Shown: positions 1-14,382 of the stretch, piece by piece
Numbering within the stretch: the first letter of the stretch is position 1
Layout: the number at the start of each line of letters is the position of its first letter
NCBI GenBank assembly: GCA_963827235.1
Contig: CAWHAE010000016.1
Coordinates: 1,156,002-1,220,001 of the forward strand
DNA length: 64,000 nucleotides
Direction: 5' to 3'
Origin: an uncultured bacterium
GTDB lineage: Bacteria > Chloroflexota > UBA5177 > JANWHV01
Made by a program: the position numbers and the translations under genes
Notes under the pieces: generated by a model
Databases searched by the model: none
What the model saw: the letters and a program-made list of their open reading frames with translations, nothing else
What the model was told of the DNA's origin: nothing

Positions 1-224
1 GCCTGCCAGGGCCGTGTACTGAAGAAGGGATCGCGCACGCTGTTCGCGCGCTTTAATCCCACGATGCTGCAGATCCTGCGTACCAGCCAACTCTCAGCGG
101 CTGCCACCTCGACGAGCACATCCAGCATTGCGCGATGTGCTTGCTCAATGCTCTGGGTCAGCGCCCACTGCAGATCGGAGAAGACGCGTTGCATAGCCCA
201 ACGGGTCAGCATCTGGAAGCCGTT

Positions 225-793
225 TTAGCTGCCGGATTCAGCCCTCGATCGCAGGACCCAGCCGTGACCCGCGTCCGGGATGGGGTGCTGTCCGAGGAAG
301 AGGCTCAGTTGGACCGCGTATTCCTGGACGTGACGCATGGTATAGAGTTGCAGCTCCAGAAAGCTGGTGGACTGCCCTGCCGACCAGGGATAGGCGCCGG
401 GCCGATTCGCCTGCTCATCGGTCAGCGCGACCAGGGTGCAGTGACACTTTCGGCGCAATGACGCGAGATAGTCGCGCAACTCCTCCTTGTGTAGGGCTGT
501 GCGGGCAGCGCTTCATGAGAATCGAGCACCCCGTGGGCAAAGGGAGCAGGGGGAGTAAACTCCCTCCTCTCCGGCATGCCGGTGAGATACAGGTCGAGCC
601 AGACCAACGCGTGAAAGCCGACATACCAGAACTCGGCAAACTGCTGGGGGAACTCCGGCGGCGGGGAGTTTCGCCAGAGGCACTGGGTCCACAGCGAGGC
701 GGGACAGGTCACCAGGGCGTTGTCCAGCATGTCGATGGCGGCGCCGAACTGCCGCCAGAGCGCGGCCTGCCATGGGGTCTCCATCTGTCTCAA
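225..793 (-). CDS. DinB-family protein (one frameshift near 490)
   Basis: ORF 793-422 (LWRQFGAAIDMLDNAL..FWYVGFHALVWLDLYL) continues in ORF 479-225 (LELQLYTMRHVQEY), giving the DinB/YfiT His pattern. Confidence 0.7.
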
Positions 794-816
794 CCGCCTC
801 GCCTTCTACTCCGTGC

Positions 817-1218
817 TCAGGCTCCTTGCTCCTCGCTACCGTCCCGTGCAGGAATACGTTCCTCGAAGATCAGGATGTTCCGAAAGGGATCGCAGAGCCA
901 GAATCCTTTGGTGCCCCAGGCGGTCTCCTGAACAGGAGACCGGACAGCACCAGTCGGCTCATACTGCTGCTGCAGTGCCTCGATATTGGTGACGCCGATA
1001 TAGCACACCCTGCAACCCTCTCGGGGTGCTTGTGGTGGATCGGAGACATTCCACTGCAGCGCGATCCTGTCACGTTCGACGATGGCGAACCCTTCGCCAT
1101 GATAGGTGTTCACAAAGCCAAGTTGTCCATAGAATGCCAGGGCTTGCTCCATATCTCCGACAAGAAGTCGAGGCGCGACTGACTCGAGTGTCGGTTGCTT
1201 CTCTAGGGATGCTGACAT
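817..1218 (-). CDS. VOC/glyoxalase-bleomycin resistance family protein
   Basis: VAPRLLVGDMEQALAFYGQLGF...VQETAWGTKGFWLCDPFRNILIFEE; ATG at 1218 with AAGGGA upstream. Confidence 0.85.
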   Translation of the reverse strand: MSASLEKQPTLESVAPRLLVGDMEQALAFYGQLGFVNTYHGEGFAIVERDRIALQWNVSDPPQAPREGCRVCYIGVTNIEALQQQYEPTGAVRSPVQETAWGTKGFWLCDPFRNILIFEERIPARDGSEEQGA

Positions 1219-1285
1219 TGGTGCATATCCCTTTCTTGCCCGCAGTGATGCCTGGTGTCTGTGCCAACCCGGCACCGCCATCGCG

Positions 1286-1811
1286 GCGAGGAAAGCACGC
1301 GCCGCCGGGCACCCCTGGGAGACGCACGATGGGGAGCACGTCCCGAAAGACCTGCTCCCCATCGCGTACCTGTGTCCCCGATACTCCTGCTGGTGCCGCG
1401 GACACCGCTACGGCCTGCCTGGTTGGACCCCGTCGCAACGGGTTCCCACCGTTCCCCGCGATTCTCTCGAATCACGTGGTGGCGAGCTATAACGTGCCCC
1501 GAGACTCTCTACCGTCTCCCGCGTGCGTGTGGGATTGGGCGACGGTGGGCTGCCTCGTGCGGCCCTGGTGCGTGGTCATGGTCGACACGACGAACGGGTC
1601 TCCCATACTCTCCCGCCCGCCGGTATCTGGCGACGCTCCCGGCGATAGTTCCCTTCACCCGACCGGCGCTTGCACGCGCGGTCTGCAGTTGCGGGCCACC
1701 TCAGGGTAGCGGTGCGGATCTCCTTCCTCGTACACAGTTGCATCAGTTCATTCAGGTACTACGAGCATAAGTCACGTCACGAGCGGCATCCAGGAACTTA
1801 TCCACCACGTC
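1286..1811 (-). ncRNA. Putative large structured RNA/leader element, copy 1 of 2
   Basis: Roughly 85-90% identical by eye to 10302-10828; long-range helices (1403-1411/1706-1714; 1366-1372/1753-1759), GAGA and UUCG tetraloop hairpins; lies upstream of the VOC gene. Confidence 0.6.
1322..1368 (-). terminator. Strong UUCG-capped hairpin at the 3' end of the repeated element (no U-tract)
   Basis: Minus strand GCGATGGGGAGCA-GGTC-TTTCGG-GACG-TGCTCCCCATCGTGC; identical in copy 2 (~10338-10384). Confidence 0.5.
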
Positions 1812-2047
1812 TGAAACGTGCCCGATTTCAAAGGTGATCGGGTTCTGATTGGGAAGGCGACATGGACCACGCGCCGCCCAAGCCGTCGCGCTGCTCCCTG
1901 CCGCCGTGTGATGCCAGGCTCGTGATTAGGAACGAAGCATGCACGGATGTATCCGGATAACCGGCTGCACGCAAGGGATTGTCGCGGGTAGCCTCTACGG
2001 TGTGGGCTGATCACGGCATCGTGCCGGCAACCGCAAAGGGGCTCAGG

Positions 2048-2608
2048 ATGGCCTTGCTGATCTACTCGGCGATCACCTCGCTCGACGGCTATGTAGAGGA
2101 TGAGAACGGCAGCTTTGACTGGGCTGAGCCGGACGAGGAGGTGTTCGCCTTCGTCAACGACCTTGAGCGTCCGGTGGGCACGTACCTCTATGGGCGGCGG
2201 ATGTACGAGACCATGGTCTATTGGGAGACCGCGCAGTCATTGGCCAATCACGCGCACGTCGAACAGGACTTCACCACGATCTGGCAGGCGGCCGACAAGA
2301 TCGTGTATTCCCGCACCCTGCAGACGGTCTCCAGCGCCAGGACGCGTATCGAGCGGGACTTCGAGCCCGAGGCGATCCGGCAGTTGAAAGCCACTGCGGA
2401 ACGCGACATCACCGTAGGTGGTGCCGAACTGGCCGCCCAGGCGATCCGGGCTGGGTTGATCGACGAGTACCACCTGTTCCTCACGCCGGTCGCGGTCGGA
2501 GGCGGGAAGCCGTCCCTCCCAAACAAGATCGGTGTGCACATCGAGCTACTCGACGCACGCCGTTTCAGCCATGGCGTGGTGTATCTCCGGTACCGCACAA
2601 GGATCTGA
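2048..2608 (+). CDS. Dihydrofolate reductase-like (RibD C-terminal domain) protein, type A
   Basis: LIYSAITSLDGYV, YLYGRRMYETM, GGAELAAQAIRAGLIDEYHLFLTPVAVGGGKP. Confidence 0.9.
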   Translation: MALLIYSAITSLDGYVEDENGSFDWAEPDEEVFAFVNDLERPVGTYLYGRRMYETMVYWETAQSLANHAHVEQDFTTIWQAADKIVYSRTLQTVSSARTRIERDFEPEAIRQLKATAERDITVGGAELAAQAIRAGLIDEYHLFLTPVAVGGGKPSLPNKIGVHIELLDARRFSHGVVYLRYRTRI

Positions 2609-2638
2609 TCGTTCGCCACTCGGAGCACGGAGACTCAC

Positions 2639-3219
2639 ATGAGAAAGCTCACCATCCACGAACACATCTCGCTGGACGGCGTGATCCAGCAGTCCGCCGA
2701 TGACTGTAATTTCCCCTACGGCAACTGGAGCGTGCCCTATCGGACCCCCGCTGGCCGGGAGGCAATCCTCGCGGCATATGGCGAGCGCTTCGATCTGGTG
2801 CTTGGCCGGCGCACATACGATATGTGGTCGGACTCCTGGCCACACGCGCCGAGCAGTCCGATGGCGGACCGCCTCAATGCGGCCACGAAATGTATCGCCA
2901 CCCACCGGCCGGAAAGTCTTTCATGGGGCCCGTTCGTGTGCCTTGGCCCGGACATCGTCGAGGGCATTCGCCGGATCAAGGCGCAGGACGGCCCGGACCT
3001 TATCCTCGCGGGTAGCTCCACGCTGACATCGACGCTGCTCGAACATGGGCTCGCGGATGACGTCGTGCTGGTCGTCTCTCCGGTCCTGTTGGGCACTGGT
3101 AAGCGCTCTTTGCAGAAGGAACCCCGCCACGCTCTTTCGAGCTCGTCAGCACGAAGGCAACGCCGTCCGGCGTCATCCTCAGTGCGTACAAGGTGGCCGG
3201 GCCTTTGCAGACCGGATAG
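2639..3219 (+). CDS. Dihydrofolate reductase-like (RibD-C) protein, type B (frameshift near 3110)
   Basis: MRKLTIHEHISLDGVIQ, LVLGRRTYDMW, GSSTLTSTLL; alternate frame gives FAEGTPPRSFELVSTKATPSGVILSAYKVAGPLQTG-stop at 3219. Confidence 0.8.
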
Positions 3220-3551
3220 GGGTCGTCGCACAAGCAACAACGAACGCGGCGACGTTTGCGCCGGGTCTACGCGTAGGTTTTCTGACCGATTCTGCGACGA
3301 CCCCTCAGTGGCCCAGGGCTACGATTGCGGCGAGCCGTGGCGAGCCTGCACGTCCATGGCGTCGTGTATCTCCAGTACCGCGCAAGGATCTGATCGTTCG
3401 GCGCTCGGGGCCAGGATGCGCATGGTCTGCGTTGTCCCAGGCAGGCGGTCCTGCGTGCTGTTTGCTGCCTCCTCCCGGCGTACAAGGTGCTCTGCGCTGC
3501 CGCCTGATTCCAGGTTATTGAAGGTACGTCTCGCCTGCTGTCCGGGGCTGA

Positions 3552-4433
3552 TCAGATGAAGTAGTGGCCCTGTTCGATGTCCTCGATGAGGCCGGGGTGG
3601 GTGGGCTTCCAGCCCAGGAGCTCCTGGGTGATGGTGCTGGAGGCGGGCATGTCGGTGCTGAGGAGGTGCACGAGCATGCCCCCGAACTCTTCGGCGGGCA
3701 GGGACCGGGCCGGCAGGTCCAGGTGCCGGCCGATGGCCTCGGCGATCTCGCGGACGGGCACGCCTTCGTCGCCGACGGCGTGGAGCACCGCGCCGGCGGG
3801 AGCCTGCTCGATGGCCAGCCGGTACAGGCTCGCGGCGTCCTTCACGTGGACGGCGGGCCAGCGGCTGGTCCCGTCGCCGATGTAGCCGGAGACGCCCTTG
3901 GTCCGGGCCACGGCGATGAGCTGGGGGATGAAGCCGTGACGTTCTCCCTCGCCGTGCACCGAGCGGGGCAGCATGACCAGGCAGGAGCGAACGCCCCGGT
4001 CTGCGGCCGCGAGCGCGGCCTGCATGTTGGTGATGCGGGCCGCGATGGGCCCGGCGGCGATGAGTTCGTCGCGTTCGGTCGCGGGTCGGCCGGGTGTGAC
4101 GAGCGTTGCGCCAGAGATCACCAGGGGCTTGCCGGAGCCGGCGAGGCAGGTGACAAACGTCTCGATGGCCGTGGCGTCGGTCCGCGTCGCAGCCTCGCTC
4201 ACGCTGGGCACGACGAAGGCCAGGTGGATGACGCCGTCGCTGTCGAGGGAGCCGGCGCGCAGCACGTCGGTGTCGTTCAGGTCGCCGCGCAGCACCTCGG
4301 CGCCCATGTCGGCGACTGCTGTGGCGGAGGCGTCCGAGCGGGCGAGCCCGAGGACCTGGTGGCCGGCACTGATGAGTTCGGGGACGACGGCCGAGCCGAT
4401 CCAGCCGGAAGCGCCGGTGACGAAGATGCGCAT
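3552..4433 (-). CDS. NAD-dependent epimerase/dehydratase (atypical SDR)
   Basis: MRIFVTGASGWIGSAV Rossmann motif, WPAVHVKDAA; GGAG RBS before ATG at 4433. Confidence 0.9.
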   Translation of the reverse strand: MRIFVTGASGWIGSAVVPELISAGHQVLGLARSDASATAVADMGAEVLRGDLNDTDVLRAGSLDSDGVIHLAFVVPSVSEAATRTDATAIETFVTCLAGSGKPLVISGATLVTPGRPATERDELIAAGPIAARITNMQAALAAADRGVRSCLVMLPRSVHGEGERHGFIPQLIAVARTKGVSGYIGDGTSRWPAVHVKDAASLYRLAIEQAPAGAVLHAVGDEGVPVREIAEAIGRHLDLPARSLPAEEFGGMLVHLLSTDMPASSTITQELLGWKPTHPGLIEDIEQGHYFI

Positions 4434-4501
4434 GGAAAGGTCTCCTTGGTCGTGCTTTGGGTGATGAAGATGCGCGGCGAGGACGCCGCGGCCGAAACGA
4501 C

Positions 4502-4585
4502 GATGCGATCCGGTCGCATCAACTATACCACAACCATGCGATGAAGTCGCATCATCTCTCCAGGTGATGCGATCCCGGTCGCCTC
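4502..4585. promoter_or_regulatory. Three palindromic TetR-type operators (ATGCGA-N5/6-TCGCAT-like)
   Basis: GATGCGATCCGGTCGCATC 4502-4520, ATGCGATGAAGTCGCAT 4536-4552, GATGCGATCCCGGTCGCCTC 4566-4585, between the divergent SDR and TetR genes. Confidence 0.7.
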
Positions 4586-4600
4586 GCGTATGCTGTGACG

Positions 4601-5216
4601 GTGAGCAGATGGGCACCGAACGCGCGTGAGCGCCTGGAGACCGCCGCGCTGGACCTGTTCGTGGAGAACGGGTACGAGGACACGACCGTCGCGCAGATCG
4701 CGGATCGCGCCGGTTTGAACCGCGCCACGTTCTTCCGGCACTTCGCCGATAAGCGGGAGGTCCTGTTCGGCGGTGAAGACGTGCTGGCCGGGCTGTTCGC
4801 CGACGGCCATCCGGGCTGCCTCTCCGGATGCGACGCTCACCGAGTGCCTGCAGGCGGCGTTCGCGGCCGCCGAGGTCGCGATGACTCCGCAGCAGCGGGC
4901 GAAGGCCGCCCAGCGCGTGCTGGTGGTCGCGGCGAACAGCGAACTGCAGGAGCGGGGACTGCTCAAGCACGCCCGGATCGCCAGGTCAATCAACGCCGCC
5001 CTGCGCGAACGGGGCGCAGACGAGCTGACCGCCCGGCTGGGGGCGGAAGTGGGGATGCTCGCCTTCACCATCGCCGTTGAGCGCTGGATGAAGGCGGACA
5101 ATGACGAGCCGTTCTCGCTCCATGCCGCAGCGGCATTGCGTGACCTGCAGGTGCGCGCGGCCGAGCTTGACTCCCGGTCCCGCCCCTCAGTCTCACGTGA
5201 GTTCAGCGAAACGTAG
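4601..5216 (+). CDS. TetR-family transcriptional regulator (frameshift near 4805)
   Basis: RWAPNARERLETAALDLFVENGYEDTTVAQIADRAGLNRATFFRHFADKREVLF; C-terminal part in ORF 4773-5216. Confidence 0.85.
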
Positions 5217-5231
5217 GAGACCAGCTCACGC

Positions 5232-5372
5232 TTGTTACGAGTCAACAAAGGCCAGCTAGCGAACCGGAGGAAGGGCAGTTCAGGCGGCCGCCTGTACGCC
5301 TTCGACACGGAGAGGCACAAGAAGCGGCACGCCATGAAGTGCGGTATCAACCGGCTCAAGCGCAATCGTGCC
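5232..5372 (+). pseudogene. IS5-family transposase C-terminal remnant
   Basis: RRKGSSGGRLYAFDTERHKKRHAMKCGINRLKRNRA resembles the IS5/IS427 C-terminal motif GGRPPAFD..YK.RN.VER.INRLK. Confidence 0.55.
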
Positions 5373-5622
5373 AAACTAGTCATCCACCACCGTGTAGACC
5401 ACCGTGAACACCATCTCCTACGGTACATCCATGGCAACCTCCGCCGCGACGGTATTCACGTGGTGTCTCGCTGTCCGATGAGGCTTTACTTGAGCGAAGC
5501 CAGCGAAAGCCGCGCGAGGAACCATCAAGTAGCCACGGTGGCTGGTCCGCCATCTGGGACATCTTGCTCGATGTTTTCCGCGTGTCGTGCCGCCGGGCGG
5601 TCGCATCCGTGCCACGATCCGT

Positions 5623-5910
5623 TCAGTCGAAGGACTCCGGCCACTGACGTTTTGAGTGGATGACGGCGAGGAGTTGTACCACGCCCGTGCGACTGCGATA
5701 GGGCACAATGTATGGGGTGTTCGGTACAACAAGCTCGCGCGTGCCGTCCACGCGTCCTGGCCGCCCCAGCGCCGGTTGTTCGAGAAGCAGCGCGGCAGTC
5801 GCAAAGATGCGGTCGTAGACTCGCTCCGCGGCGTCGGGATCGTCACGCGCGATGTACGCGACAATCTCAGCCAGATCTGCTCGGGCTTGCGGCATCCAGC
5901 GGAGACGCAC
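5623..5910 (-). CDS. Type II TA toxin, RelE/ParE family
   Basis: MRLRWMPQARADLAEIVAYIARDDPDAA...PALGRPGRVDGTRELVVPNTPYIVPYR. Confidence 0.9.
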   Translation of the reverse strand: MRLRWMPQARADLAEIVAYIARDDPDAAERVYDRIFATAALLLEQPALGRPGRVDGTRELVVPNTPYIVPYRSRTGVVQLLAVIHSKRQWPESFD

Positions 5911-6189
5911 TTAGCCCTGCGCTGAGGTGCCGCTGCCCAGTCGAGCGCGCGCGTCGGTGACGATGTGCCGCATCTCCGCTTCGATCTCGTCCTGTTCATA
6001 GCCCAAGTCGGCATCTGCTTCGGCCAGACCTTGGCGGATCTTGGCCACTTGCCAGCTCTCTTCGGCCAGGTAGCGCCGTACCGCTTCTGCCACGTGGTGA
6101 TTGCGGCTACGTCCTGTAGCGGCGGCGAGGGCATCCAGTTGCACCTTATACTCTTCCGCCATGCGGACCGGGATGTTTGTCGTTGCCAT
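5911..6189 (-). CDS. CopG/RHH-family antitoxin
   Basis: IPVRMAEEYKVQLDALAAATGRSRNHHVAEAVRRYL; abuts the toxin; GGAGG RBS; inverted repeat TGTAGAC..GTCTGCA at ~6234-6252 is a likely operator. Confidence 0.85.
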   Translation of the reverse strand: MATTNIPVRMAEEYKVQLDALAAATGRSRNHHVAEAVRRYLAEESWQVAKIRQGLAEADADLGYEQDEIEAEMRHIVTDARARLGSGTSAQG

Positions 6190-6618
6190 CGCGGTGTAGC
6201 CTCCTCACTGCGAGTATAGCAGCTGTAGAGATCTGTAGACATACCGTCTGCAACACGAAGCGCCAACACCGATCGTGGTCCTTGGGCTCGTACGCAGGGG
6301 TCGGCGCGCGTCAAGGGAGAGGGCGATGCGCGGGCGCCAATGCGTTGAGACGGACTGACTGAACGCATCAACGCACTCACGCTTCGGCGCAGTGGCCGGC
6401 GGTGACGCTGCCGCGCAAGCGCCGATGACAGCCAATGCCATCAACTACAGAATCCGACCATCAAATGGGTCTCACATACAATGTCCAAACATCAAGGAAG
6501 TTGTCGTACGACACTCGCTGCAAGGTTGCCAGTCTACGCTCTCAGCCCCTCATGTGCACCGCGCGCCTCAAGCTCTGCCGGTGCTGCCGTTGTGCAGGAA
6601 GTTGATCTGCCGCTTACC

Positions 6619-6656
6619 ACCATCGCCATCGCCATCGCCATCGCCATCGCCATCGC
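6619..6656. repeat. Hexanucleotide microsatellite (CCATCG)x6
   Basis: ccatcgccatcgccatcgccatcgccatcgccatcgc visible directly. Confidence 0.9.
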
Positions 6657-6859
6657 ACACGAGGGTGCGCCGGTCAGTATACAAATGAAGAGCATCGTGT
6701 CCCTGGGCGACGACGAGGCTCGCCCGGATGACTGCCGGCCGGGTGCAGCGTGATGCCGTCCAGCCGGCACAGGCCGCAGCCACTGGTGAGCCGTGGATCA
6801 TCAGCGTGGGCGCGCACCGGCGCGGCGGGCAGGGCCAAGGCGATAGACTGGGTTCGAAG

Positions 6860-8095
6860 CTATCGACGCCCGCGAAACGTTCGTCGCAGGTCCTCGACCC
6901 ATTCTTCGGGGACTTCCCATGGAATGAAGTGACCGCCGTGGTCGTGCGCGGTGATGTTGACGTGGTTGTACCAGGCGGCGCGATCGCTTTCCAGGAAGTG
7001 CTGCACGCGTTGCTCGTTCGTGTCCACGCCGGGCGGATTCTCGTAGCCGACGAACGTGATCCCGGTTGGTGCTTCGACCACCGGCCAGCGATCATGCGAC
7101 GGCTGCCAGGGGTAGCGGTTGTTGTTCGCGTAGGTGCGCATGGACGTGGCGATCGCGTCTCCGGCCCAGTAGATCGTGGCATGGGTGAGCCGGTCGTCCT
7201 TGCTGAAGACGTTCTCGATGTTGCCGCCGGTGTCGGCCCAGTTGGTTCAGCGCTCCAGGATCCAGGCGAGCATTCCGGCAGGCGAGTCGGTGAGCCCAAA
7301 GGCCAGCGTGCTGGGGTCGAGCACGTGCGCGGCCAGATGCACGGCAAACCGCTTGTCCAGGCTCACGATCCGCCGATGGATCGCGGGCCGGAGCCCTTCG
7401 GGAATGGCTCGACCGCCGGAGTAGTCCCAGCCGCGGTCGCCATTGAAGAAGCTGAGCTTCAGCCCCGAGCAGATGTGGATCGCATACAGCTCGCCGGCGT
7501 ACTTGTGCCCGAGCTGCCCGGTGATGAGCGCGCCGACGTCGCAGCCTGCGGCGGCGTATTTCCGGTAGCCGAGAATCCCCGTCATCAGCTGGCGCCAGAC
7601 GTCTGCTATCTTCCAGAAGTTCATGTCCGGGCTGCTCGACGGCGGTGTTGAGAAGCCGAATCCCGGCAGCGACGGCACGATCACGTCGAACGCCTCGCCG
7701 GGGTCACCACCGAACGCGCCGGGATCCGCCAACCGGTCGACGACCTTCGACCAGTGCCAGAACGTCCACGGCCACCCGTGCGAGAGGATCAGCGGCGTCG
7801 GGTTGGGGCCGGCTCCCGGCCTGCGCATGAAGTGGACGGGCACGCCGTCGACGTCGACCTTGTAGTGCTCGTAGGCGTTGATCGCCGCTTCCGCCGCGCG
7901 CCAGTCGTACCTGGTACTCCAGTACTGCACCAGCACCTGCAGATACGAGCGGCGCACGCCATAGTAGCCGTCATCGTTGCCGGCATCCTCGGGCCACTTG
8001 GTCGCCTTCAGCCGGACGACGAGGTCGTCGAGCACCGCATCCGGGACATGGATCGGCGTTTGCTGCAGCGGGAATGCTGTATCCGGCACGCCCAA
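6860..8095 (-). CDS. Epoxide hydrolase (EHN + alpha/beta hydrolase), frameshifted near 7250
   Basis: LILSHGWPWTFWHW, VIVPSLPGFGFS, nucleophile elbow GCDVGA, C-terminal HGGHFIPWEVPE in ORF 6860-7141. Confidence 0.85.
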
Positions 8096-8302
8096 CTCCG
8101 TGACAGTGACTCAAACCCAAGGCAAGCATGTGGGCGTGTTTCCGTGCCGACGGCCCGGGGCGGCCGGCGGTTCGTTGCGCCGCCGCGACGAGGAGGCCCA
8201 CGACCCTGCCCTGAGTCTAGTCTACGGGACAAGGCGTCGAAGACGAGGGTTCGAGGCCGGCCGTAACCCAGTGTTGTGCCCTGGTGGCCATGCCGCTTAC
8301 TC

Positions 8303-8731
8303 TCATGCTCGGTGCATATGCCCGTCTTGGGACTTTATGTAGTCATAGGATTGTTGCACGATTTGTTCAAGTATTGGCAGTTGTATATCGCTAAGCCGCT
8401 TGATGTACACACAAACCCTGCTCGAAGTATGTTTGCCTAAGCGAGCCAGTAATTCAGAGTAACGTACCGTGCCGTCCATAAGGTAAATGGTTATCTTACC
8501 TCTTCTTGGATAAAAACCAATAGTCTGGCTGTCGCCTTCGCGTCCGCTGTCGTATTTGTAGTGATACGTATCAAACCCGATAGTTCCCACATTCCACATC
8601 TTTGGCTCATGTCCGCTTATTCTCTGCATCATTTCAACAAGCACGTGGCAATCTCTTACGCTTTCTTCATCGTCAAGTGAAGAAATATAGTCTGTGACTG
8701 AACTGTCATTATGAGTAGTCATTTTGTCCAT
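8303..8731 (-). CDS. DUF1801 (YdhG-like) domain protein
   Basis: ISGHEPKMWNVGTIGFDTYHYKYDSGREGD...LGKHTSSRVCVYIKRLSDI; clearly lower GC than its flanks. Confidence 0.9.
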   Translation of the reverse strand: MDKMTTHNDSSVTDYISSLDDEESVRDCHVLVEMMQRISGHEPKMWNVGTIGFDTYHYKYDSGREGDSQTIGFYPRRGKITIYLMDGTVRYSELLARLGKHTSSRVCVYIKRLSDIQLPILEQIVQQSYDYIKSQDGHMHRA

Positions 8732-8827
8732 GGGTCATATTGTACCATCTCAGACAGTGCCAACTCAACGAGCAGGGGCGGACGGCACGACAGCTGAGGG
8801 CATGTTAGCAGCGGACGGCGTCTCCAA

Positions 8828-9429
8828 TCAGAACGACCCAGCGTTGACCGGACCTGCGGCGCGGTAGGTGGTGATGAGGACGCCCTTGGGCGTGCTGCGC
8901 GTCTCGACCAAGGCAAGGCCGCGCGGCAGCACGCCATTCCCAAACAGCCGCTTTCCTTCGCCGAGCACCACCGGAGCGATCCAGTGGCGATATTCTTCGA
9001 CAAGCTCGGCAGCGATCAGCGTTTGCAGCATGCGCTGCTGCCCCCGACATGTAGCACAGGCCCATCCGATGCCTTGAGGCGGCGGACCTCGTCCATGATA
9101 TCGCCCCCTATGCGCTGCGACTTCTCCCAGTCGAGCTGGTCGAGCGTGCGCGTGACGACGTAATTGGTCGCCTTGTTGAACGCCTTCGCGATCGGGTTGT
9201 CGCCCTGGTGCGGCCAGCAGGCGGCGAAGATCTCGTAGGTCCGGCGTCCCAACAGCATGCCGAACTCCCCAGCGATAGTCTCGTCGATGATCTGGCTGAG
9301 GGCGTCGTCCCCGAAGGGCATGGCCCAGCCTCCGTAGGTGAACCCGTTGCTCGGATCCGCGTCGGGGCCACCAGGCGCCTGCATGACGCCGTCCACCGTG
9401 ACTTGGGTGATGGCGATGATCCTTCTCAT
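8828..9429 (-). CDS. Dihydrofolate reductase-like (RibD-C) protein, type B (frameshift near 9035)
   Basis: MRRIIAITQVTVDGVMQAPGGP, LLGRRTYEIFA; C-terminus LVEEYRHWIAPVVLGEGKRLF in the adjacent frame. Confidence 0.85.
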
Positions 9430-9621
9430 TGTCTCTCTCCAGTTTCTTCGCATCGCATCCCAAGACGCGAGCACCAATTGGCCGCTCTCTCTGGCTTTCG
9501 GTTCACTTGCTTGCCTTGGACGGCAGCGAGAGAGAGCGCGCGACATGGTCGAGGCTCTACGCGGCAATCTCAGGCCCACCCTTTTGCCGTGGAGTCCGCC
9601 AATGCCGGCATCGCGGGCCTC

Positions 9622-10182
9622 TCATGGCCTGCTGCGATAGCGGAGGTGCACGACGCCGCACCCACACCGGTGTTCGTCGAGCAGCTCGAGCGGCAGGTGC
9701 ACTTGCCTGGGCAAGGCGGGGAGGCCGCCTCCGACCACGACTGGCGTGAGGAACAGGTGATACTCGTCGACCAGCCCGGCACTGATGGCCTGGGCGGCCA
9801 GGGTCGCGCCGCCGATGCTGATATCGCGCTGCAGGCTGCCTTTCAGCTGCCGCACCGCCGCGATGTCGAAGTCTCGCTCAATCCGTGTCCTAGCGCTGGA
9901 GACCGCCTGCAACGTCCCGGAGTACACGACCGTGTCGGCCGCCTGCCAGATGGCGGCAAACTCCTGCAGGACAAGCGGCTGGTCGGCGACGAAGCGCGGG
10001 TCCTCCCAGACGACCATCGTCTCATACATCTTGCGCCCCAAGAGGTGCGTGCCGATCGGCCGCTCGAGCTCATTGATCAACGCGATTACCTCCTCGTCCG
10101 GCATCGTCCAGTCGATGCTGCCCTGCTCGTCCGCGACGTAGCCGTCGAGGGACGTGTTCGCAGCGTAGATCAGCTTGGCCAT
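9622..10182 (-). CDS. Dihydrofolate reductase-like (RibD-C) protein, type A
   Basis: MAKLIYAANTSLDGYV, LLGRKMYETM; paralog of 2048-2608; AAGGAGG RBS. Confidence 0.9.
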   Translation of the reverse strand: MAKLIYAANTSLDGYVADEQGSIDWTMPDEEVIALINELERPIGTHLLGRKMYETMVVWEDPRFVADQPLVLQEFAAIWQAADTVVYSGTLQAVSSARTRIERDFDIAAVRQLKGSLQRDISIGGATLAAQAISAGLVDEYHLFLTPVVVGGGLPALPRQVHLPLELLDEHRCGCGVVHLRYRSRP

Positions 10183-10301
10183 ACAGGATCCTCCTTGTAC
10201 GCATGGTGCCTGCATCGCGCAATCTTCCCGCGGGTAGCCGCGTGGCATGGAGACCGCGAGCCTGGTTAGCGCGTGTCAGCAGATCCAGATTCGCACGCCT
10301 G

Positions 10302-10828
10302 GTGAGGAAGCCACGCGCTGCCGGGCGACCTCGGGAGACGCACGATGGGGAGCACGTCCCGAAAGACCTGCTCCCCATCGCGTACCTGTTTCCCCGATAC
10401 TCCTGCTGGTGCCGCGGACACCGCTACGGTCTGCCTGGCCGGACCCCGTCGAAAGGGGTCCCTTCCATTCCGCGCGACTCTCTCGAATCACGTGGTGCCG
10501 AGCTATAGCGTGCCCCGAGACTCTGTACCATCCCCCGCGTGCATGTGGGATTGGGCGACGGTGGGTTGCCTCGTGCGTCCCTGGTGCGTGGTCGTGGTCG
10601 ACACGACGAGCGGGTCTCCCATACTCCCCCGCCCGCCGGTATCTGGCGACGCTCCCGGTGATGGATTCCCTTCACCCGACCGGCGCTTGCACGCACGATC
10701 TGCAGTTGCGGGCCACCTCAGGGTAGCGGTGCGGATCTCTTTCCTCGTACACAGTTGCATCAGTTCATTCAGGTGGTACCAGCATAAGTCACGTTAGGAG
10801 CGGCATCCAGGATGTTATCCACCACGTT
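10302..10828 (-). ncRNA. Putative large structured RNA/leader element, copy 2 of 2
   Basis: Direct-repeat homolog of 1286-1811; substitutions in stems mostly retain pairing on the minus strand. Confidence 0.6.
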
Positions 10829-11031
10829 TGCGAGTTGCCATTCCGACTTTGGCGGCGCACCATGGGGGCGCAGGTGCCTGGGTGATGAGGAGCTGCCCCA
10901 TGCGAGCGACGCTTTTCGCGGTACACTCACCCGAGCAACGCCGCTGCCATTCTTTGTCATTGCAGCCGAGCGCCTAGCTCGAGGGACGGCGTGGCACCGG
11001 GGCCCTGTGGTGGGAGGGCAAATCTGGAAAG

Positions 11032-11664
11032 GTGCTCTCGATGCGGGCTCCTCGCCCGGGGACTGTCGGCCTGTGTGGAATCGCCGCGTTCGCCGGCCTG
11101 GTTGGCGTGGAGCATGTCCTGCGCCCCGACCATGATCCGTGCGGCCGCTATGTGAGCGAGTATGGCGTGGGTCCCTATCACCAGGTGATGACGACCGCGT
11201 TCTTCGCTCTCGGGATCAGCTCAACCGCCACGCTGGTGGATCTGTCGCGAACCGTTCCCGCCCCTGCCCGCTCGCGCGCCGGTCTCGTCTTCCTCGGCAT
11301 CTGGAGTGGGGCGATTCTCGTTGCCGGGCTCTTTCCCACGGACCTCTCGGGACCGAACGGCCGGCCGGAGCACCCAACGACGCCGGGAATCATCCGCGCG
11401 CTGGCCGGCGTTACCGGATTCCTCAGCGTGCCGCTCGCCGCGTGTCTGCTGGGCCGCGGGTTCCGGCGTGACCCCGCCTGGAAGCGCTTTGCCCAGCCCT
11501 CGCTCACACTGAGCGCGCTGCAGAGCGCCGCCGTAGTACTGTCCATCGCTAGTCCAGTGCGGTACATCGGCGTGAACGAGCGGGTCTTGATCGTGTGCGA
11601 CCTGGCGTGGCTAGCGTGGCTGAGTCAGGTTCTGCGGTGCGCGCAGTACCAAGTAAAGGAATAG
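11032..11664 (+). CDS. DUF998-family membrane protein
   Basis: HVLRPDHDPCGRYVSEYGVGPY, AGLFPTD, multiple hydrophobic helices, GVNERV. Confidence 0.8.
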   Translation: MLSMRAPRPGTVGLCGIAAFAGLVGVEHVLRPDHDPCGRYVSEYGVGPYHQVMTTAFFALGISSTATLVDLSRTVPAPARSRAGLVFLGIWSGAILVAGLFPTDLSGPNGRPEHPTTPGIIRALAGVTGFLSVPLAACLLGRGFRRDPAWKRFAQPSLTLSALQSAAVVLSIASPVRYIGVNERVLIVCDLAWLAWLSQVLRCAQYQVKE

Positions 11665-11666
11665 AC

Positions 11667-12065
11667 ATGAACACGCTAGTCCCAATGACAACAAAGGAGA
11701 TCTTCGAGCAGGCGCTGCCTGCCATTCTGAGCGGTGATCTTGCCGGCCTCCTTGGCTGTTGCGCCGAGGATGTGGTCTTCGAGTTTCGCGTCGCGCCGGC
11801 CGGCCGGCCACGCCGCCTGGAAGGCCGCGAGCAGGTCCGTGCATACCTGGACGCGGTCTATGCGCGCCTCTCGATCGAAGGCGTCATCAGTCTCGAAATC
11901 CACGAGACGACGGATCCGGCTGTCGTGATTGCCGAAATGACCCTCAAGATCACGTTGCGCGATGGTACGACCCGCGAAGCGGCCTACGTCGAGGTCGTGA
12001 CGGTGAGAGACGGTCGGATAGTGCACATCCGTGATTACTGGAGCCCACTCGCGCTCGCAAACTAG
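11667..12065 (+). CDS. SnoaL/NTF2-like protein
   Basis: CAEDVVFEF..GRPRRLEGREQVRAY...VVTVRDGRIVHIRDYWSP; AAGGA RBS. Confidence 0.85.
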   Translation: MNTLVPMTTKEIFEQALPAILSGDLAGLLGCCAEDVVFEFRVAPAGRPRRLEGREQVRAYLDAVYARLSIEGVISLEIHETTDPAVVIAEMTLKITLRDGTTREAAYVEVVTVRDGRIVHIRDYWSPLALAN

Positions 12066-12125
12066 AGGCAGGATAGCAACCAAACGTGTAATCCGGCATA
12101 GGGCCAGATACTCCACGAATCGGTG

Positions 12126-12299
12126 TCACGCCCCCGTGTTCTTGAGGACGAGCAGATAGAAGGCTCCAAACGCCCCGACAATGCAGATGTTCGCCAGCAG
12201 CCGTGCCCAGAACTGATGCCGCAAGAACAGGACATCGACACTCACGACAAGGGCGATCATCACCACAACGTACAGTACAATTGGCATCTGCTTTGGCAT
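12126..12299 (-). CDS. Small two-TM membrane protein (57 aa, absent from the ORF track)
   Basis: Hand translation MPKQMPIVLYVVVMIALVVSVDVLFLRHQFWARLLANICIVGAFGAFYLLVLKNTGA; AGGAGA RBS. Confidence 0.7.
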   Translation of the reverse strand: MPKQMPIVLYVVVMIALVVSVDVLFLRHQFWARLLANICIVGAFGAFYLLVLKNTGA

Positions 12300-12340
12300 G
12301 TCAATCTCCTGTCAAGTTACACCGCCCGCTGAACACAGGC

Positions 12341-12608
12341 TCAGGTTCTGGGAGATGCGGAGCGGGCGATGGTCAGCTCCCAGTAGCCGGCCGCGCCTGC
12401 CGGCGCCGCCCCCAGGAACAGCGCTGCCCACCCGTACGTCTTCCCGTTGGCGCCGCCGAACACGAGCGTCAGGACCACAGACAGCCAGGACGATACCAGC
12501 TGCAATGCGCGCGCTTGCAAAGGCACGGAGATGGCGGTACTCCCTCGGCGGGATCAACCGTCGCAAGTCGGCACGCAGGGGAATGGTATTTTCGTGCTGT
12601 GCGTCCAT
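12341..12608 (-). CDS. Small membrane protein, hypothetical (frameshift near 12480)
   Basis: MDAQHENTIPLRADLRRLIPPREYRHLRAFASARIAAGIVL joined to VLTLVFGGANGKTYGWAALFL...YWELTIARS; GGAGGAG RBS. Confidence 0.55.
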
Positions 12609-12806
12609 AGGATGTCTCCTCCGACCTGCGGTGTCCGGCCACCCGGCCGCCTCTCAAGACGGTAGCACGTTGAGAGGTGGGCCGTCAGGAGTGACTGTCG
12701 CGAGGATCCGGCTGGGCGGGTACGTGTGCTCACCGTGCTCACACGCGGCTGGCCTGGGCGCATCGCGCACCCGGCGTAGACCGTCTACTGACATAGCGGC
12801 AACGAC

Positions 12807-14382
12807 TGATTTAGGCAGGAGGAGGTTGCAGTATAGGGCAGGGTATGCCAAGCTGGACAGACCAGGAAGAGTGCCCCCGGATCCCTGGCGCAGTGCAAGG
12901 TGGACGCCATGGCACGCACGTACTTTCCCCTCACCACGGCCTCCCAGCGGCGGCTATGTTTGAGACCTGGCAGACGACGGGCGACGTAGCGCAGGCTTGT
13001 CGGGTGGCCCACGTCGGCCAGCGTACCTTCTAGTATTGGAAGCCCCGCTTCGTGGCCGGGGGCTACCCGACCCTGGAGCGGTGTGGCAGTCATGTGCCCC
13101 ATCACCCGCACCAGACGGCCCCGGCCGTGGCGGAGCGGGTGATTGCCCTCAAGCAGGCGCAGCCCGGCTGGGGTAAACGGCGGCTGGCTGAGGAACTGGC
13201 CAAAGCGCAGGGGTGGGTACCCCTGGTCAGCCCGAATACGGTCCAGCGCATCTTGCGGGACGCTGGCCTGTGGCCGGAAGCGGCGCCGCCGGGAAAACGG
13301 GCGGGCCGAGCGGCGAGAGCCGCAGCGCCGACGAGCCCGGCCAAACCCTGAACGTCGACCTGTGCTTCGTGCCCGCCGTGCACCAGGTGGCGCAGCACCT
13401 GCCGGCGGTGAGCGGGTCGTCGGGGCATCTGGTGGTCTACGGGCCACGCCCACAGACGGACGATGCGGTGCGGGTCTGGCCAGGCCAGGTGTTCGCCGAC
13501 CCTGCGCTGGACGATGCGGCAGCGATGCGGGAGTTCGTGTGGCGGTCGGCGCCGCCCACACCGCGGCGCGCCGCCGGGCACGGGCGCCAGGAGACGGCGG
13601 AACAGGCGGCGGCCCGGCTGCTGCGGGAGCAACGCAAGCGCGTGAATGGGCAGCGGGCCCAGGTGCTCGCCCAGCGCAAACAGGAGGATGCCGCTTGGCG
13701 CGCAGTCTGCCGCGAGCGGCAAACACGGCTCCGCCCTGCGCGCTGGACCCCGCGCCAGCCAGCCGCCTACCTGGCGGCGGAGGACTACTTCCTCGTGCTG
13801 CAGGACCAGCGGCAGGCCACGCTCACCCGACGGGAACAGGAGGATGCCGCCAAGCACGCTGCGCTGGTGCGCCTCGCCCCGCCGCCCGCGCCGCCGGTCA
13901 CCAAGCCGCCCTGGATCGCCATCCTGGTGGTCACGGATAACTGCACCCGGCAGTGTTTGGGCCTGCCCCTGTTCGTCGCCGGCCCCCAAGGTCACCGCCG
14001 AGGTGGTCGTCGCCGCCCTCCGTGAACTCTTGCCCGCCCAGCTCCAGTTCCTGATCTCCGACCGCGGCTGCCACTGCACCGCCCAGCAGTTCGCACAGTT
14101 CGCCGACGAGGAGGACTTCGTGCATGTCCTGATCGCGCGCCATCGTCCTGCGAGCAACGGGATAGCGGAAAGAGTTGTGCGCACCGTCAAAACCTGGCTC
14201 GCTGAGCACGCCTGGAGCAGCACCGAGACCCTGGAGACCCTGCTCGAGCAGTGCCGGCTGGCCTATAATGACCGGCCGCACCAAGGCCTGGCACTTCCCG
14301 GCCTCTCCCCCAACGAGTTCGCCAGCCGCTTCTGGCTGCTCTAGGTTCGACGTCCAAGTGCAACATCTGTCTGCCTAAATCA
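12807..14382 (+). mobile_element. IS481-like insertion sequence (HTH + DDE integrase core), degenerate
   Basis: 24-bp imperfect TIRs TGATTTAGGCAG-N6-GTTGCA at 12807-12830 and 14359-14382; transposase pieces PGWGKRRLAEEL, FLISDRG, SNGIAERVVRTVK, YNDRPHQGL, with stops and frameshifts. Confidence 0.75.

Follow-up and report, generated by a model that had tools for sequence, protein, structure and literature searches.

Bacterial RNAs that exceed 400 nucleotides (nt) and maintain a conserved, intricate fold are rare, and nearly all of those that are understood are ribozymes or form the cores of large machines; large folded RNAs have accordingly been described as rare molecules that probably serve sophisticated functions (PMC5737381). 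ROOL, with a mean length of 581 nt and six multistem junctions, is reported to reside often near tRNAs and in prophages, as does GOLLD (PMC5737381). OLE RNA, a highly structured molecule of about 600 nt with conserved nucleotides whose biochemical function is presented as unresolved, is described from Bacillota that are extremophiles or anaerobes, where it forms a complex with the Oap proteins (PMC9723947; PMC12054373). ROOL, GOLLD, and OLE are reported to form RNA-only homo-oligomers (PMC12286853). The raiA motif is an abundant structured non-coding RNA (ncRNA) whose position relative to its neighbouring genes argues against cis regulation (PMC5737381; PMC12968392). Here, we report on an element of approximately 530 base pairs (bp) that is present twice in a 64,000-nt stretch of DNA (hereafter the window; contig CAWHAE010000016.1, positions 1,156,002 to 1,220,001, of GenBank assembly GCA_963827235.1) from an uncultured soil bacterium of the Chloroflexota. 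Each copy is probably a self-contained gene for a stand-alone, highly structured ncRNA of about 430-440 nt that is encoded on the minus strand and represents a previously undescribed family. We detected this family in a single genus-level group of uncultured soil Chloroflexota and nowhere else, with 2 to 5 copies per genome.

The closest known RNAs are ROOL, GOLLD, OLE, and raiA; the likeness lies in the size class, the complexity, the lack of a cis target and the fact that a function is unknown, and it does not extend to sequence or fold because no Rfam match was obtained. Rfam holds models for both ROOL and GOLLD. Like these two, the element appears as a large, many-helix, stand-alone RNA without a constant protein partner nearby that was recognized through comparative analysis; unlike them, it is accompanied by a tRNA at none of 25 loci, gave no match to phage or viral sequences, is shorter (about 430 nt), is restricted to one Chloroflexota group in which it forms diverged chromosomal paralogues, and has no match in Rfam 15 at E<1. 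With OLE it shares the large size, the high degree of structure and the presence of conserved nucleotides, but it occurs in a different phylum, lacks a conserved neighbouring protein gene and gives no Rfam match. Like the raiA motif, the element is structured and apparently abundant, with a position relative to neighbouring genes that speaks against a cis role; however, the raiA motif is widespread in Firmicutes and Actinobacteria and has the recurrent neighbours raiA and comFC, whereas no neighbour recurs beside the element, whose distribution is very narrow. The raiA RNA is about half the size of the element. 6S RNA and Ms1 resemble the element in being stand-alone and apparently abundant, but 6S RNA folds into a long rod of about 180 nt with a central bubble, while the element is multi-branched and 430 nt in length. 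Canonical 6S RNA was detected in none of the five genomes of the genus, an absence that says little since the sensitivity of the 6S model is low (it gave matches for just 5 of the 14 control genomes). The element is assignable to no known RNA family or mechanism, and 'large ncRNA of unknown function' is a descriptive category only.

The two copies of the unit are direct repeats, both read on the minus strand (Table 1). A repeat search aligned positions 1285-1584 with 10301-10600 at 90% identity and positions 1649-1822 with 10666-10839 at 91%, an alignment of the minus strands with MAFFT yielded 92% column identity, and a blastn search of the whole assembly (7,984,468 bp in 21 contigs) returned only the two window copies, 91.5% identical over 530 nt. 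The stretch of high identity in the MAFFT alignment begins about 10 nt ahead of the sequence TGGTGGATAA and ends about 45 nt beyond a GC-rich hairpin, and the flanks on either side are unrelated. Our analysis bore out what a preliminary description of this DNA had reported, namely a repeat at the positions given there, with unrelated flanks, that is accompanied by neither a transposase nor terminal inverted repeats (TIR) nor target-site duplications (TSD). The RibD_C paralogues that adjoin the two copies are only 76% alike, as compared with 92% for the copies themselves, which fits a recent event, either duplication or gene conversion, that was limited to the homologous unit; the two copies may hence be paralogues kept alike by such an event, and this would explain their sharp boundaries without transposition.

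That the element is a conserved structured RNA can be stated with high confidence. For the predicted RNA of copy 1, the z-score of the minimum free energy amounts to -4.05 for the minus strand, which none of 100 shuffles equalled, and to -2.25 for the plus strand, where 2 of 100 shuffles did as well. RNAalifold assigned to eight copies an energy of -111.7 kcal/mol on the RNA strand versus -83.1 kcal/mol on the opposite strand, with 34 of the 114 predicted pairs being compensatory. We then relied on an alignment of 20 non-redundant full-length copies (A4; 519 columns with a mean identity of 72%), for which the forward strand gave -84.7 kcal/mol with a covariance term of 9.03 and the reverse complement -54.4 kcal/mol with a term of 2.65. 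In the resulting 77-pair consensus, the share of paired cells is 96.5% and falls to 39.4-48.7% once the 3' partners of the consensus pairs are slid by 1-3 columns, and 27 pairs have changed on both sides, against 7-11 in these slid controls; none of 500 shuffles attained the observed value on any of five measures. The absence of covariation across homologues, which the preliminary description had named as an outcome that would speak against its proposal of an undescribed large structured RNA from the minus strand, was thus not what we observed, and this proposal agrees with the strong covariation, the preference for the minus strand and the lack of an Rfam match at E<1.

When the clades of the family were folded separately, they displayed the same overall plan: a closing stem that starts from ACCUGA has as its partner the stretch directly preceding the 3' hairpin and is followed by two multi-helix domains, the second of which is closed by GCCGC/GCGGC. 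In copy 1, ACCUG (1757-1753 on the minus strand) pairs with CAGGU (1372-1368); the CCUG/CAGG part of this stem is invariant, and duplex folding paired the RNA ends in the 19 copies processed (of 20; L157 not included). In this manner, the 5' end of the RNA would pair with the segment just before the 3' hairpin and close the molecule on itself. Covariation is seen in five of the seven pairs of helix 5 and in helices listed in Table 1, and two of the four pairs of a long-range helix (columns 77-80/445-448) have changed on both sides; helices at columns ~105-200 are under-counted because MAFFT is out of register between clades there. The loop of the AUUC...GAAU hairpin is of the GNRA type in 19 of the 20 copies and CUUG in one. 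One of the 14 helices (3-7/13-17) is regarded as spurious; it lies in the promoter region and is devoid of double changes. The minus-strand helices named in the preliminary description can be read from the sequence at the positions stated there. One among them, the 9-bp helix CACCGCUAC (1714-1706)/GUAGCGGUG (1411-1403), is present in the window copies but restricted to their clade and not kept in the other two. The differences between the window copies that convert Watson-Crick into G-U pairs (GACCG to GAUCG, GAAUC to GAGUC, and GACGGU to GAUGGU), also pointed out there, are present in the MAFFT alignment of the copies.

Variable columns are spread almost evenly over the three codon positions (100/103/109 in eight homologues). 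Since the substitutions are without codon periodicity, the element is non-coding, and a reading as a protein-coding gene or pseudogene was ruled out. It is a discrete unit found in unrelated contexts, with a strand-specific, many-helix fold kept by compensatory changes. It thus displays the generic hallmarks of a structured ncRNA (compensatory changes, a strand-specific fold, no coding signal), with the structure being derived from the same alignment and the sequences being related. Searches of Rfam 15 with cmscan left both window copies (window positions 1-14000 scanned) without a match at E<1, and likewise six copies from the other two clades. RNase P, tmRNA, T-box, cobalamin riboswitch, and group II intron, which had been set aside before on the basis of sequence hallmarks, gave no match near the gathering score. 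The scan works, since it recovered a SAM riboswitch (RF00162; 86.5 bits) at positions 8742-8851 of a metagenome contig (L154) that also bears a copy of the element, to which the riboswitch is unrelated. A canonical RNase P RNA is present elsewhere on the contig of the window (288.7 bits); therefore, the element is not a housekeeping RNA. Two weak matches in the window, far under the gathering score, are probably due to chance (sR53, 24.3 bits, 4413-4491; Mu-gpT-DE, 23.7 bits, 12297-12346). The motifs of the survey that reported ROOL are reportedly contained in Rfam, and its supplementary list could hold a related motif. A full-text search of the literature listed nothing on this RNA.

The copies have a common order of signals: a box (TGGTGGATAAC), a spacer of 27 nt, a -10 hexamer of the form TAnnnT, 6-8 nt, the sequence ACCUGA, the many-helix RNA and the hairpin. 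The box is conserved to at least 90% in 10 of its 11 positions among the 20 copies and is lost in L149; its occurrence as TGGTGGATAA at the 5' edge of both window copies had been recognized in the preliminary description as a promoter-like box. It is not a -35 region because its distance of 27 nt from the -10 hexamer is too large (16-18 nt would be expected); instead, it may serve as a promoter-proximal binding site for a protein. T40, A41, and T45 of the hexamer are invariant in all 20 copies, as is ACCTGA (columns 52-57), and a TGn motif, the extended -10 form, precedes the hexamer in all 11 clade-C copies. The hexamer thus combines conserved T1, A2, and T6 positions with a fixed distance to the start of the RNA, as befits a sigma-70 -10 region, and we consider it a putative promoter element. 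The folded region begins at ACCUGA in all three clades, and for this reason we place the presumptive transcription start there, approximately 7 nt after the hexamer and at or beside ACCUGA; the RNAs of the two window copies would consequently extend from 1757 to ~1322 and from 10774 to ~10338. At the other end, the GC-rich hairpin may either terminate or stabilize the transcript. In the main clade and in clade C, 3-4 U come after it; in the window copies, none do. A sigma-70-like site on the plus strand inside both copies (TCGACA-16-CATACT; 1582-1609 and 10598-10625) is not conserved in the other clades, and we treated this antisense site as a chance occurrence rather than as a promoter.

An index search revealed three RNA-labelled sequencing runs from three studies that contain small shares of the words of the element, and the contigs of these runs were placed on window positions 600-2600 at a likeness of at least 85%. 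In the run X2 (soil, 62 million letters), 78 contigs fall on the element, eight of them with at least 99% likeness, 19 with 95-99%, 32 with 90-95% and 19 with lower values; their summed word depth reaches 558, although depth is a poor measure of expression. The wetland run X1 contributed 17 contigs that cover partly the element and partly neighbouring genes, and X3 a single 416-nt contig over 1468-1757. The RNA-library pieces listed on the element lie between 1393 and 1769. No contig of X2 or X3 falls on positions 600-1336 or 1806-2600, which gives no sign of transcript ends; the flanks of relatives also differ. The RNA runs hence attest to the presence of many variants of the family in RNA libraries, and not to strand, ends or level.

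Searches of 61 related genomes with BLAST recovered the element in its own genome (G000) and in the congeners G003 and G004, along with a marginal 35-nt match in G005. With relaxed scoring, six loci in G003 and G004 aligned over 413-524 nt at 63.6-65.4% identity. A covariance model built on the central domain (R1; 177 positions) yielded 10 matches in three of 21 genomes of the class (two in G000, three in G003, five in G004) and none in two other genomes of the genus that are 87% and 83% complete; among 151 sampled genomes of the phylum, it matched G000 only. Collectively, the element is present in three of five genomes of the genus, in none of 16 other genomes of the class and in none of ~135 further sampled genomes of the phylum. 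The two matches in G004 that the model added to the BLAST loci are a complete copy, located 1.9 kb downstream of another one, and a copy without its 5' half. The latter (L018; G004:C396:16387-16569 plus flanks) keeps the 3' ~240 nt and the hairpin and is located upstream of the same AMP-binding synthetase gene as the full-length copies in G003, L140, and L157. A scan of a metagenome collection with a two-motif pattern returned 20 contigs, 18 of which bear 20 true copies that are 80-99.6% identical to those of G003 and G004; distant relatives would be missed because the pattern requires two exact motifs. The remaining contigs, L147 and L152, are chance pattern matches that look protein-coding. 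The search for more copies recommended in the preliminary description has hence provided eight in two congeneric genomes and 20 on metagenome contigs, and the genes downstream of them have been tabulated (Table 1). A loose 17-base pattern scan of genome contigs, which returned at least 119 stretches and is no proof of absence elsewhere, listed 80 loci, three of which were matched by R1, all on contigs of two already known metagenome-assembled genomes. The family falls into three clades (the window pair, the main clade and the 'G4c' clade), with 57-63% identity between them.

Two metagenome contigs bear tandem pairs with a spacing of about 1.6 kb. Same-strand pairs at distances of 1.6-1.9 kb comprise those on L143 (26-506 and 1601-2083) and L008/L019 (G004:C249); an opposite-strand PIN-domain gene lies between the tandem copies on L143 and L156, and two open reading frames (ORFs) without Pfam matches, one of them nucleotidyltransferase-like by eye, lie between those of G004. 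A partial copy on L148 (28-262 onward) leaves the family sequence after a CCACC motif and represents either a recombinant or a variant 3' half.

In the reading that we favour, the RNA would act in trans as a folded particle (a scaffold for proteins, an RNA-only assembly or a catalyst) and would not be the leader of whichever gene happens to lie downstream. Several observations weigh against this reading or temper it. No result points to a function, a ligand or a partner protein. The tested 77-pair structure came from the same alignment on which it was evaluated, which favours it over the slid controls, and the shuffle control overstates significance because the sequences are close relatives. 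The mean energy of the closing stem is -9.7 kcal/mol for cognate strands, -6.6 for cross-clade combinations and -7.2 for shuffled strands, in a weak test in which 24% of the shuffles were as good and 5 of the 20 sequences had a mis-cut 3' strand. A simple scanner found neither a sigma-70 -35/-10 pair nor, by its rule, a terminator consisting of a hairpin plus U tract on the minus strand of either window copy. An X1 contig extends to position 1769 and that of X3 to 23 nt beyond 1757; hence, some molecules include a further 12-23 nt upstream of the proposed start. The RNA runs consist of assembled contigs, and DNA can occur in RNA libraries. In the window clade, the sequence directly 3' of the hairpin is AUCGUGCG and not a U run; therefore, read-through into the VOC or RibD_C gene is possible. 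Finally, every downstream gene in the main and window clades is co-oriented with the element (five locus types).

Table 1. Features of the two window copies, their neighbouring genes, and the locus types of the family according to the orientation of the downstream gene.
Feature	Position or locus	Strand	Remarks
Copy 1 of the unit	1286..1822	-	from box to ~45 nt past 3' hairpin; 90-92% identical to 10302-10839
Copy 2 of the unit	10302..10839	-	repeat search, MAFFT, blastn
Predicted RNA body, copy 1 (~436 nt)	1322..1757	-	begins at invariant ACCUGA; at least 13 helices
Predicted RNA body, copy 2	10338..10774	-	includes 3' hairpin 10344-10379
5' box TGGTGGATAA(G/C), copy 1	1798..1807	-	A-rich tract before it in most copies
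Box, copy 2	10815..10824	-	
-10-like hexamer TATGCT, copy 1	1764..1769	-	27 nt after box, 6 nt before ACCUGA
-10-like hexamer, copy 2	10781..10786	-	
Motif GAGAUCCGCACC	1711..1722	-	invariant in 20/20 copies; served as search pattern
CGAGGC/GUCUCG helix enclosing the CCGUCGCC...GGAGACGG hairpin	1552-1557 with 1500-1505	-	
Hairpin CCGUCGCC...GGAGACGG	1512..1545	-	helices 8 and 9; 4/7 pairs of helix 9 covary
GNRA-capped hairpin AUUC-GAGA-GAAU	1461..1472	-	helix 12; 3/4 pairs covary
3' GC-rich hairpin (16-bp stem, UUUC loop)	1328..1363	-	helix 14; 10/16 pairs change on both sides; terminator-like, but without a U tract in the window copies
VOC/glyoxalase-family gene	817..1219	-	downstream of copy 1; PF00903, E 2.4e-5; neighbour, outside element
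RibD_C gene	9622..10248	-	downstream of copy 2; PF01872, E 7.4e-17; neighbour, outside element
RibD_C paralogue	1979..2608	+	divergent from copy 1
Co-oriented locus type: VOC/glyoxalase	copy 1		
Co-oriented locus type: RibD_C	copy 2		
Co-oriented locus type: AMP-binding, acetoacetyl-CoA-synthetase-like	G3a, truncated G4d, L140, L157		
Co-oriented locus type: nitronate monooxygenase	G4b, G3c		
Co-oriented locus type: M20 peptidase	G3b		300 nt away
Co-oriented locus type: CBS/BON	L148		partial copy
Convergent locus type: NrfD/4Fe-4S/molybdopterin operon	L144, L151, L154		
Convergent locus type: helicase	L141		
Convergent locus type: glyoxalase	L155		
Convergent locus type: PIN toxin	L143		between tandem copies

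The orientation of the downstream genes is also an argument for a different interpretation, the second of the two options in the preliminary description, according to which the element is a very long cis-acting leader of the attenuator or riboswitch kind that senses a signal, with the 3' hairpin serving as a conditional terminator for the co-oriented gene behind it; we consider this unlikely. In the window and main clades, the co-oriented gene starts 30-300 nt after the hairpin (VOC, RibD_C, an AMP-binding synthetase in four genomes, nitronate monooxygenase in two genomes, or an M20 peptidase), and read-through is plausible in the window copies, where the hairpin is not followed by a U tract, but the co-oriented genes have no pathway in common. 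Over the entire family, the downstream gene is co-oriented in six of ten locus types and convergent in four, one of which, the NrfD operon, recurs on three contigs; the upstream genes are equally varied. The constant position in a 5' untranslated region ahead of co-oriented genes of one pathway that would typify a cis leader was therefore not found, and the lack of a constant partner gene and of a common pathway argues against a dedicated leader as well as against a protein-linked mobile system. Furthermore, the unit possesses its own -10 element, the hairpin covaries as a plain stem, and no anti-terminator pairing was evident, in the context of an inspection that included no systematic search for alternative structures. 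The known leaders are, to our knowledge, far smaller than 430 nt.

The neighbourhood in the window had suggested to the first observer that the element controls or mobilizes genes of the xenobiotic or antibiotic response. The gene annotations behind this suggestion hold for copy 2, which is followed according to Pfam by RibD_C, a second RibD_C (split into two overlapping ORFs), DUF1801 and epoxide hydrolase, and in part for copy 1, where Pfam supports the VOC/glyoxalase gene but the ORF at 422-793, taken for DinB, has no match at E<=1e-4. The suggested role itself is not sustained: the copies have different neighbours, and four of the ten locus types have a convergent downstream gene, so that the notion of a detoxification-gene leader is unsupported. 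The RibD_C paralogues constitute a 458-nt inverted repeat (76%; 2048-2505 versus 9725-10182), while the element copies are direct repeats. A further RibD_C homologue on the minus strand (8828-9579) is represented by the overlapping ORFs 8828-9463 and 9016-9579, each corresponding to half of PF01872; it could reflect a frameshift, a pseudogene or an assembly error. A 63-nt direct repeat (87%; 2569-2631 and 3354-3416) lies near the 3' ends of the tandem RibD_C-type ORFs 1979-2608 and 2639-3559.

A somewhat smaller chance attaches to the idea that the element belongs to a mobile or defence system, as its RNA or its DNA end, and that it is either a non-autonomous element or a guide or scaffold RNA with its protein encoded elsewhere and spreads as a cassette. 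The patchy distribution within the genus (three of five genomes), the multiple copies with their sharp homology boundaries, the 5'-truncated copy, the tandem pairs, and the location of several clade-C copies beside toxin-antitoxin genes (ParDE, PIN, Gp49+HTH_3) would all be in keeping with such a system. However, none of the flanks examined contains a transposase, an integrase, a reverse transcriptase, an IscB/TnpB-like gene, a TIR or a TSD; no inverted repeat at the ends of the element was found in the repeat search of the window; and searches of viral contigs, plasmids and phages gave no copies, nor does a tRNA lie near the 25 loci inspected. Paralogues in one genome are only 57-63% identical, and the synthetase and monooxygenase loci are common to several genomes, which fits old, vertically inherited paralogues and argues against active mobility. 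Hence, the mobilization part of the earlier suggestion finds no backing in transposition genes, TIR, TSD or high copy number; likewise, the end of an insertion sequence (IS) or of a miniature inverted-repeat transposable element (MITE), which the preliminary description had listed as a possible undoing of its proposal, would be expected to show many near-identical copies, whereas the genome has two. A comparison with empty sites defined no insertion boundaries: the monooxygenase query had no orthologue in G000-G002, the synthetase query recovered only paralogues at 31-35% identity, and a DNA search with window positions 8300-12100 recovered only RibD_C homologues without common flanks.

It is very improbable that conservation acts on the DNA, as in a protein-binding or replication-related region with a DnaA-box-like box: the plus-strand form of the box, TTATCCACC, agrees in 8 of 9 positions with what we take to be the DnaA-box consensus, its commonest variant, TTGTCCACC, presumably mirrors a tolerated DnaA-box variant, and canonical box clusters exist elsewhere in the genome, but each unit has one box only, the box is not enriched in the genome (GGTGGATAA occurs 14 times versus 29 expected and is thus under-represented), and the compensatory changes, the many conserved G-U pairs, the strand asymmetry of the folding energy, the GNRA loops and the presence of family members in RNA libraries point to a single-stranded RNA. 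No 500-bp segment of the genome contains five or more relaxed DnaA boxes. Canonical DnaA-box-like 9-mers (of the TTATCCACA and TTGTCCACA types) are tightly clustered in groups of three at G000:C19:133700-133822 and G000:C12:1628965-1629098; both are possible candidate origin regions, and the occurrence of a pair may relate to the 9% contamination estimated for the assembly.

The narrow distribution is the main limit on the reach of a finding that otherwise concerns an element with its own promoter signals, several paralogues per genome and a presence in soil and wetland RNA libraries. It is conceivable, if speculative, that the stand-alone RNA proposed here represents a new class of large, 'ornate' bacterial RNA that operates without a dedicated protein, as a ribozyme or as a self-assembling particle like ROOL, GOLLD, and OLE, that its diverged paralogues might co-assemble, and that soil RNA contains it in abundance. 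Its ends and helices are predicted with sufficient precision to permit direct synthesis, probing and cryogenic electron microscopy. A further class of large RNA, from an abundant and uncultured soil lineage, would be a new object for RNA biochemists.

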